A stretch of DNA of 47,454 nt from Bifidobacterium breve (GTDB lineage: Bacteria > Actinomycetota > Actinomycetes > S36-B12). The position numbers and the translations under genes are program-made. The notes beneath the pieces were generated by a model that had not been told where the DNA came from, did no database searches, and saw only the letters and a list, made by a program, of their open reading frames with translations. The stretch is from positions 1-47,454 of the forward strand of contig CAMAWO010000002.1 in the NCBI GenBank assembly GCA_945861925.1, written 5' to 3'. Shown in pieces: positions 19,248 to 20,372 of the stretch (positions are counted from its first letter, which is position 1; each line of letters starts with the position of its first letter).

Positions 19248-20372
19248 GTGACGTCACGCAAAGTCCTCGTCGCGCTCGGGGCAGCCCGTCACCTCGACGC
19301 AGATCTCGTCCTCGATCTCGGCGACCTCCACCCCGCCCAGCACGGCGCACTCCAACTGGCCCTAGAGCTCGATGACGACATCATCACCGCGGCCGATGCC
19401 CGGGTAGGCCTCCTGCATCGCAGCGCGGAAAAGCTCTTCGAGGCCCGCGACTATCGGCAGATCCTCATGCTCGCGAACCGGCACGACTGGCTGTCAGCCT
19501 TCTCCTCAGAACTCGGAGTCGCCCTCACCATCGAAGCGGCGATGGGCATCGTTCCCCCCGAGCGCGCCACCTGGTCGCGCACCCTGCTCGCCGAGGTGAA
19601 CCGCATCACGGCATCACTCCTGCTCGTCGGGGCGGCCGTACCCGAGGCCGCGCCGAGCCTTGCTGTGCGAGAGGAGCTCCAGGAACTCCAGGAGCGGGCG
19701 ACCGGCGGCCGCGTCCACCCGATGATCACTCGAATTGGCGGGCTCGCGCATCCGCTGGATACTCCTTGGCTCGACGATCTCGCGCGAGTGCTCGCAGGGC
19801 TCACCGCTCAACTGCCCACTGTCCGCGAGTCCGTGACTACCGCGATGCAGGCTCACGCAGGAGTCGCCGTGCTCACCACCGCCGATGCACTGTCCATCGG
19901 CGTGAGTGGGCCGGTCGCCCGAGCAAGCGGCGTCGACCTTGACCTACGTCGTGATGCGGCTCTCCTCGCCTACCCGGAACTCGTGTCGCTCATCGACGTT
20001 CCGGTCTCCATCGCCGGCGATATCTCCGCGCGTTACGAGGTCCTTCTCGGCCAGATACCCGTGAGCATTGCCCTCATCGCGGCCGCCAGCGCCCGGCTGC
20101 GCGAGCTCGGCGAGGGGCCGGTGAATGTGCCGCTGCCCAAGGTCGTTCGAGTCCCGGAAAGCACCAGCTACGGCGAGTTCGAGGGCCCGCTCGGACGAAG
20201 CGGCTACCTACTCAGCAGCGTAGGTGAGAAGACGCCGTGGCGGCTGAAACTGCGCACGCCATCATTCACCAACGTTCAGGCGCTTGCGCGAGCATTGCCC
20301 GGCACACCCCTGCATGCGCTCGGACCCGCGGTCACGTCCTTCTTCTTCGTCGTCGGCGACATCGACCGCTGA
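19248..20372 (+). CDS. orphan NADH-quinone oxidoreductase subunit D (NuoD/Nqo4/NDUFS2)-like protein
   Basis: [40 protein letters not shown], and C-terminal [16 protein letters not shown]...VVGDIDR align by eye without gaps to the Nqo4/NuoD N- and C-terminal blocks. No other nuo genes are nearby. Confidence 0.75.
   Translation: [374 protein letters not shown]

Follow-up and report, generated by a model that had tools for sequence, protein, structure and literature searches.

A second set of nuo genes, consisting of nuoA2, nuoB2, nuoD2 and nuoH2 to nuoN2, has been described in streptomycetes, where nuoD2 is located apart from the nuo2 operon (PMC3765725, PMC8388888). A complex I of 11 subunits that lacks the N-module is also on record (Moparthi and Hagerhall 2011, PMC3144371), and in Ca. 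Actinomarina a gene for the methyltransferase NDUFAF7 follows the 11-subunit operon (bioRxiv 10.1101/2021.02.01.429150). NDUFAF7 dimethylates Arg85 of NDUFS2, the residue next to cluster N2, and a dimethyl-arginine also occurs in Nqo4 of Paracoccus (PMC3829151, PMC8042128). Here we describe a relative of these systems in a 47,454-nucleotide (nt) stretch of actinobacterial DNA (contig CAMAWO010000002.1 of assembly GCA_945861925.1, positions 1 to 47,454), hereafter called the window. The gene in question, nuoD2, occupies 19248..20372 of the + strand and encodes a paralogue with the NuoD/NDUFS2 fold. The reading that we prefer, with a probability of about 0.65 as a whole, is that this protein is the actinobacterial NuoD2 (D2) in a lineage whose second complex I has been reduced to a membrane-less four-protein Fe-S arm plus a methyltransferase.

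Research on complex I leans on Tyr87 and His38 (Thermus numbering), the contact residues of quinone-site (Q-site) ligands, and on the arginine adjacent to N2, the methylation of which is needed for assembly of the complex in mitochondria. The NuoD2 family, which is natural, ancient and distributed very widely, has Trp at the site of the quinone Tyr, and the automatic annotation of its members as 'NADH-quinone oxidoreductase subunit D' is misleading. The lineage of the window is a natural experiment in which the membrane arm was removed and the Fe-S arm kept, while Streptomyces, having both genes, provides a genetically tractable bacterial NDUFAF7-type enzyme together with its likely substrate. 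The system could reveal the role of the arginine methylation, the ability of a Q-module to stand alone, and the donor and acceptor of the N-module-less second complex I. Literature searches on the function of nuo2 and NuoD2 gave annotation-level mentions only.

Identity and phylogeny of NuoD2

The open reading frame of nuoD2 gives a stop-free, cysteine-free translation of 374 residues. Its score against PF00346 (139 bits, E 2e-40, Pfam gathering cut-off 24) assigns it to the Complex1_49kDa fold. It stays under every curated cut-off of the NCBIfam NuoD equivalogs (TIGR01962 and PRK06075), the best score being 231 bits against a cut-off of 360 and that for TIGR01962 being 214 against 459, and it is thus not assigned to canonical NuoD. 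In a phmmer search of all PDB chains, the best matches were NDUFS2 and Nqo4 (E 1e-43 to 1e-39), with the MBH and HycE chains being far weaker (E 1e-25 to 1e-16). The alignment with NDUFS2 has no gaps across residues 19–120, and the gapless alignment to Nqo4 made by eye in an earlier sequence-only reading of this DNA was therefore correct. Identity to canonical NuoD or NDUFS2 is about 30%. The AlphaFold2 (AF2) model, with a predicted local distance difference test score (pLDDT) of 85.8, has NDUFS2 and Nqo4 as its top Foldseek matches, with template modelling (TM) scores of 0.80–0.84. The stretches of lowest confidence, residues 51–80 and 151–170, are the ones best conserved in sequence, which in the model fits segments that would become ordered against partner subunits or at an interface.

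NuoD2 thus shares with canonical NuoD, Nqo4 and NDUFS2 the fold, a HRGxE-type motif, Arg78 and a C-terminal D-R. It differs from canonical NuoD in the Trp at the quinone-Tyr site, the sub-equivalog score, the missing nuo operon context, its separate clade and its length, being 35–70 residues shorter than the 409–442 residues of canonical NuoD. Assignment as the large subunit of a group 4 [NiFe]-hydrogenase was considered and rejected, since two CxxC motifs are needed and the protein has zero cysteines, and since the MBH and HycE matches are weak.

A word-indexed search listed 120 homologues of 365–394 residues with 52–95% identity, mostly nameless or automatically named 'subunit D', and a genome scan found at least 590 loci with the D2 motif, in metagenome-assembled genomes (MAGs) of the Nanopelagicales type (the kin of the window), Streptomyces, Kitasatospora, Nonomuraea, Streptosporangium, Cryptosporangium, Embleya and Micromonosporaceae. 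Because the scan had used the motif as its seed, a HMMER search of 1.8 billion representatives was run as its unbiased counterpart. Essentially all full-length matches with E < 1e-50 carry R-H-[DE]-W, His157 and a GD-x-D-[RK] end, and the next-best matches after this family are ordinary Tyr-type NuoD or NuoCD proteins. The window protein bears the complete signature.

In a FastTree phylogeny rooted on group-4-hydrogenase-like homologues, the Trp-type proteins, including that of the window, form one clade with a Shimodaira–Hasegawa-like (SH-like) support of 98, apart from the canonical actinobacterial NuoD clade with 100 (SH-like supports were used, not bootstrap). The phylogeny thus agrees with the earlier view of the protein as a non-canonical paralogue. 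An origin as a recent duplicate of the operon NuoD was rejected because of the separate clade and the identity of only about 30%. Nonomuraea (G043:C1:3122000-3136000, locus L125) as well as G018:C40, G038:C56 and G025:C94 encode, together with NuoB-like and antiporter-like genes, a third NuoD homologue that is more distant (about 30% identity). It looks like part of a group-4-hydrogenase or Mbh-type cluster and served only as the outgroup of the tree.

Among the closest described relatives is NuoD2 of Streptomyces, with 45–50% identity. Both proteins have the R-H-D-W motif, His157 and the GD-x-D-[RK] C-terminus, and both genes occupy the same site between pan/nad and fol genes with the same PF02636 gene upstream. 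The Trp, the arginine and the methyltransferase link discussed below appear in neither of the Streptomyces papers (PMC3765725, PMC8388888).

Residues at the quinone site

The phmmer alignment places NRHDWLSAF of D2 over FDRLDYVSMM, with Trp81 (codon at 19488..19490, +) in the place of the Tyr that binds the quinone head group (Thermus Tyr87, bovine Tyr108, Yarrowia Tyr144). HPAQHG lies over QHPAAHG, which sets His32 (19341..19343, +) at the quinone-ligating His (Thermus His38, bovine His59), and Arg58 (19419..19421, +), in a HRxxEK motif, lies over the HRGTEK arginine of NDUFS2 and is homologous to Arg85 beside cluster N2. The spacing of His32, Arg58 and Trp81 (26 + 23) equals that of bovine His59, Arg85 and Tyr108. 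A MAFFT alignment gave the same result for the Tyr column, which is Trp in 106/106 D2 sequences as against Tyr in 11/11 canonical NuoD proteins of actinobacteria. The Trp proposed by the sequence-only reading at this position is hence borne out by both computed alignments, and the protein lacks the full Tyr87/His38 ligand pair of canonical NuoD.

Trp81 and the cluster-facing block around it (19428..19502, +), which includes His79, are invariant in 24 diverse members. His157 (19716..19718, +, in GGRVH) is likewise invariant in the family, while canonical actinobacterial NuoD has Asn there. The quinone His was also said to be conserved, which is true for the window protein and does not hold for the family. 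Its position is occupied by A, T, Q, P, N, D, S or M in a minority of family representatives, and a subclade of 19 representatives has Ala, Thr or Pro. Retention of this His as a family trait was rejected, given its variability both among the HMMER representatives and in the tree.

Embleya, Cryptosporangium and Nonomuraea have nuoA2-B2-C2-H2-I2-J2-L2-M2-N2 operons without D, E, F and G, and the only extra D gene in these genomes is of the Trp type and lies at the fol/pan locus. Other classes of the phylum carry the Trp-type D gene (N-R-[HI]-D-W) within complete nuoA-B-C-D-H-I-J-L-M-N operons, several of which are positioned directly 3' of the canonical nuo operon. Nuo2 is a second complex-I-like enzyme of Actinomycetota with 11 subunits (nuoABCDHIJKLMN) and without NuoEFG. 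It is comparable to the 11-subunit complexes described earlier, in that D2 serves as the D subunit of such an operon in other Actinomycetota classes and an NDUFAF7 gene comes after that operon. In class Actinomycetes, the D2 gene has its place between pantothenate/NAD and folate genes, apart from the other nuo2 genes. Because Trp81 occurs in-operon in full nuo2, it is what the D subunit of an N-module-less complex normally has and not a mark of local inactivation. The Trp had been taken as pointing to a non-catalytic protein, and this use of it fails, since the Trp is invariant in the family, also in full-operon lineages and in those in which canonical NuoD is the less conserved of the two proteins.

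The arginine switch between the D and B subunits

The arginine beside N2 resides on NDUFS2 in most species, whereas in Thermus it is contributed by Nqo6 and the NDUFS2 position is Thr (PMC8042128). Both arrangements are present in these actinobacteria. In 11/11 genomes the canonical subunits have HTG in NuoD and VAGR in NuoB, the Thr standing at the Arg58 position in all 11 canonical NuoD sequences of the alignment. D2, on the other hand, reads HR[GS] in 106/106 sequences, and B2 reads [AS]GT at every locus examined, in reduced and full lineages alike; Thr in the partner B subunit is also what Yarrowia NDUFS7 has. Judged from the aligned residues, D2 (Arg) and B2 (Thr) are complementary in the same way as the canonical pair (Thr/Arg), which matches the published inter-subunit switch. 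If D2 were to pair with canonical NuoB, the arginine beside N2 would be duplicated. We propose that D2 would pair with NuoB2, the putative holder of an N2-type [4Fe-4S] cluster, and that Arg58 would fill the space beside this cluster.

Partner genes and loss of the membrane arm

The canonical nuo operon of the genome is divided between two contigs, nuoA–E (including the operon NuoD) on C139 and nuoF–L on C148. A third contig, C227, carries a tight cluster of three genes, encoding a NuoB2-like protein of 157 residues with all four N2 cysteines, a NuoC2-like protein of 173 residues and a NuoI2-like protein of 116 residues with two CxxCxxCxxxCP motifs (all eight cysteines). All 12 cluster cysteines of B2 and I2 are kept across the order. 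The cluster is flanked by a divergent gene for the alpha subunit of 2-oxoacid:ferredoxin oxidoreductase (OFOR) and a DUF520 gene, which are identical to the flanks of the Embleya nuo2 operon and of the B2-C2-I2 clusters in relatives. Because it shares these flanks, the cluster is nuo2 stripped of A2, H2 and J2–N2. The sequence-only reading had called the protein an orphan without a NuoB nearby. This is right for the window and wrong for the genome, where the cognate B2-C2-I2, with all its Fe-S cysteines and the Arg/Thr covariation with D2, lies elsewhere, so that D2 is not partnerless.

The OFOR alpha gene lies at 1471-2865 (-) of the C227 locus (L039) and is divergent from nuoB2, with an overlap of about 70 nt between its predicted start and the start region of nuoB2.

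None of the nuo2 membrane subunits (A2, H2, J2–N2) was found in the genome of the window, which has one NuoH. The count is also one in each of five near-complete genomes of the order, including a closed one, where no second NuoH came to light. Streptomycetes, in comparison, keep the full membrane arm. With A2, H2 and J2–N2 missing, the enzyme cannot be the 11-subunit complex here. Three relatives (G029, G036 and G040) lack both D2 and B2, and a fourth (G028) retains only a D2 fragment at a contig end.

The upstream NDUFAF7/MidA-type methyltransferase

The gene immediately upstream (18363..19235, +), which had played no part in the earlier argument, is the strongest functional clue. It encodes 290 residues and stops 12 nt before the NuoD2 start, so that both genes probably form one operon. 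The protein matches PF02636 with 59.7 bits (E 4e-16, cut-off 23.3), is the sole PF02636 protein of the genome, and has a motif I for binding of S-adenosylmethionine (SAM), V-I-D-V-G-S-G-A-G-G-L, at 18552..18584 (+). All 22 D2-linked homologues likewise match PF02636, and Asp66, Gly68 and Leu74 of the D-x-G-x-G motif are invariant in their alignment (A2). A single-sequence phmmer search against PDB gave no match and NCBIfam holds no model for the protein, while the profile built from the 22 homologues matches 4F3N, 1ZKD and 5ZTZ (MidA, the NDUFAF7 homologue). The AF2 model (pLDDT 91) has these families as its six best Foldseek matches, with TM scores of 0.67–0.72, as compared with at most 0.48 for generic methyltransferases. 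By Pfam score, SAM motif and MidA-like fold, the upstream gene belongs to NDUFAF7/MidA (PF02636, COG1565).

In these genomes an arginine of the NDUFS2-Arg85 type is found only in D2 (Arg58) and not in canonical NuoD, and Arg58 is the probable substrate of the neighbouring methyltransferase. The situation resembles that of NDUFAF7 and NDUFS2 in mitochondria and of Paracoccus Nqo4 in the coupling of a PF02636 gene with a NuoD-type protein that has the homologous arginine. It differs from the mitochondrial case in that the two genes probably form an operon, that the methyltransferase is shorter (290 versus about 380–430 residues), and that the putative substrate would be a paralogue, the main complex I subunit having Thr in place of the arginine.

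Most of 80 loci have the two genes on the same strand at a distance of 0–4.5 kb. Of 41 relatives, 23 yielded the methyltransferase gene, each time beside D2 and never without it; the four relatives lacking full-length D2 gave no match, also in a family-level search. In a phylum sample of 201 genomes, a D2-like match is present in 65 of 67 PF02636-positive genomes versus 59 of 134 PF02636-negative ones, the low-identity end of these matches taking in Tyr-type proteins such as that of G047. At least 30 genomes of the sample have a PF02636 gene and D2 within 16 kb, some directly 3' of an in-operon nuo2. Eight unpublished genomes (G046, G063, G093, G113, G133, G165, G191 and G216) are part of the phylum counts; none of the fetched loci comes from them.

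The idea that a further gene is regularly placed between the methyltransferase and D2 was also considered and rejected, because at spacings of 2–4.5 kb the intervening genes vary by lineage (P450, bPH_2, aminotransferase, TerC, CoA-transferase, histidine kinase). In G032:C7 (L020), an unannotated frame lies in the 3.6 kb that separate the two genes.

Evolutionary rates, local decay and selection

In lineages with complete Nuo2, D2 is the more conserved of the two D subunits, with 74–83% identity versus 69–79% for canonical NuoD. In the order of the window, the identities are 35–55% and 70–83%, respectively, which means a 2–3.4-fold divergence. D2 of this order is thus far faster-evolving than that of Streptomyces, with quinone-cavity loops that are decayed. 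The β1-β2 loop region (residues 21–40; 19308..19367, +), an element of the quinone cavity, has a mean column conservation of 0.92–0.95 where NuoH2 exists and 0.55–0.59 in the window's order. The loop of residues 121–140 (19608..19667, +), which is the counterpart of the T-H-A-L-D loop of NDUFS2, falls from 0.76–0.99 in full-complex lineages to 0.28–0.51 in remnant lineages, and is shortened and variable in this order, with two 3-residue deletions relative to NDUFS2 in the phmmer alignment. The block of residues 57–88 and about 40 scattered positions, such as Arg58, His79, Trp81 and His157, are invariant in full and remnant lineages. The loss of constraint on D2, by column conservation, is local and affects the loops that build the quinone cavity in complex I.

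The D2 frame is intact in 37 of the 41 relatives, from at least eight families, while families f5 and f6 have lost the D2/B2/C2/I2 set. Within the genus, the ratio of nonsynonymous to synonymous substitution rates (dN/dS) is 0.07–0.19 for D2 and 0.14–0.28 for the methyltransferase, similar to that of the adjoining folK and DUF3180 genes, and 0.21–0.31 for B2, C2 and I2 (one pair). These values indicate that the four genes are not dead and that purifying selection persists.

Proposed function and alternative explanations

In the mechanism that we propose, nuo2 of this genome and its order, the Nanopelagicales-type freshwater actinobacteria, has been cut to nuoB2-C2-I2 with all membrane subunits gone, and what remains would be a four-protein arm with three [4Fe-4S] clusters, accompanied by the methyltransferase as a putative maturation enzyme of D2. 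Trp81 would be ancestral and, together with His79 and His157, would belong to a rebuilt substrate pocket. The arm probably still transfers electrons, and may act as a soluble or loosely attached electron-transfer module with ferredoxin from the adjacent OFOR as a plausible donor. Since the membrane genes are gone, the cavity loops of D2 have decayed and the termini of B2, C2 and I2 are shortened, it is most likely no membrane quinone reductase now, and canonical quinone reduction by the remnant arm appears unlikely in this lineage. The description of D2 as non-catalytic or re-purposed was right insofar as the protein is a non-canonical NuoD by score and clade, without a cognate membrane partner in the lineage and with decayed cavity loops.

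Several observations weigh against this reading. The link to OFOR is based only on the conserved neighbourhood, and D2 never adjoins B2-C2-I2 in class Actinomycetes. The genome of the window is 88% complete and may, in that genome alone, hide a second NuoH. B2, C2 and I2 are 25–60 residues shorter than their counterparts in full lineages, of which only the C-terminal shortening is firm because gene starts are uncertain in high-GC loci. One in-frame TGA each in the NuoB2-like frames of three relatives (G015:C5:75797-76207, G016:C74:6776-7135 and G027:C11:228655-229068) would fit erosion, and may also come from sequencing error or from an alignment that runs past the true start. Fourteen relatives have D2 without a detectable methyltransferase. 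In G032, a genome of the same order that is 100% complete, D2 and the methyltransferase are kept but neither B2 nor I2 was found, so that D2 may have a role independent of the two.

What the remnant arm would do is a more tentative matter. A possible form is a free-standing, soluble three-cluster oxidoreductase, in other words a natural membrane-less Q-module, in which the pocket of methylated Arg58, His79, Trp81 and His157 would be re-purposed for a soluble substrate as acceptor and ferredoxin/OFOR would feed the electrons.

The principal rival is a hybrid enzyme, in which B2-C2-D2-I2 would be an alternative arm on the single canonical membrane arm (NuoA, H, J–N), giving a ferredoxin-driven, NADH-independent and menaquinone-reducing isoform of complex I. 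One set of membrane subunits is indeed faced by two sets of B, C, D and I; in many relatives B2-C2-I2 lies just past the nuo operon, 15–20 kb from canonical nuoB; the Fe-S ligands are all kept and the OFOR gene is a conserved neighbour; and cyanobacterial NDH-1 is known to exchange subunits in a modular way (cited in PMC3765725). However, precisely the D2 loops that would form the quinone cavity with NuoH (β1-β2 and 121–140) are the least conserved ones in the order, terminal segments are lost from B2 and I2, and selection against hybrid complex I enzymes has been reported (Spero et al., PMC4453560). We consider this explanation doubtful, though it deserves to be kept in mind.

The view of the sequence-only reading, that D2 is a stand-alone, non-catalytic or re-purposed protein of the 49-kDa fold without a NuoB-type partner (a scaffold, a sensor or a binding partner of the methyltransferase), is unlikely. 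It would account for G032, for the similar G019 (92% completeness), for the location of D2 away from B2-C2-I2 throughout class Actinomycetes and for the canonical quinone ligands that are not conserved. It is hard to reconcile with the finding that conservation in D2 peaks in the block which, in complex I, is turned towards cluster N2 of NuoB (PMC8042128), with the Arg/Thr complementarity to B2 throughout, with the joint absence of D2 and B2 from G029, G036 and G040, and with the role of the same protein as an in-operon subunit in other classes.

That D2, B2, C2 and I2 are an eroding relic, functionless after loss of the membrane arm and on the way to pseudogenes, is quite improbable. The 2–3.4-fold faster evolution of D2 relative to canonical NuoD, the shortened B2, C2 and I2, the in-frame TGA codons and the loss of the set in f5 and f6 might be read in this way, but the frame of D2 is intact in nearly all relatives, its dN/dS is the same as that of folK and DUF3180, D2 has about 40 invariant positions, and none of the 12 Fe-S cysteines has been lost.

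Replacement of canonical NuoD by D2 alone in the 14-subunit complex I, with an altered quinone or inhibitor site that could confer, for example, resistance to Q-site inhibitors, is suggested by the wider retention of D2 than of B2, C2 and I2 (G032) and by the general role of Tyr87 and His38 as Q-site ligand contacts, but it is very improbable, as Arg58 of D2 and the arginine of canonical NuoB would put two arginines into a site that the published switch fills once (PMC8042128).

Neighbouring genes

The neighbours of nuoD2 are DUF2520, panC and nadB on one side and DUF3180 and folK on the other, so that a nuo operon context with nuoB/nuoC and nuoH is missing; in class Actinomycetes the family usually sits here, flanked by the pan/nad and the fol cluster and preceded by a PF02636 gene. 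The order DUF2520-panC-nadB-nadC (13989-18328, -), in which the NAD genes come directly after panC, is kept beside D2 throughout the order, as it is in many other actinomycetes.

In one MAG contig (CAVZPI010000033.1, 1-5800; locus L047), an inverted second copy of ftsH-folE-folP-folB-folK-DUF3180-D2-methyltransferase lies beside the intact D2 unit. Its folK, DUF3180, D2 and methyltransferase consist of several frame-shifted pieces, and the copy represents a duplicate that has degraded or else an artefact of assembly. In the window itself, ftsH occupies 23522-25558, and just past it a gene at 25699-26841 (-) encodes a protein of 380 residues that matches the virginiamycin B lyase family (PF24684, E 1e-92).

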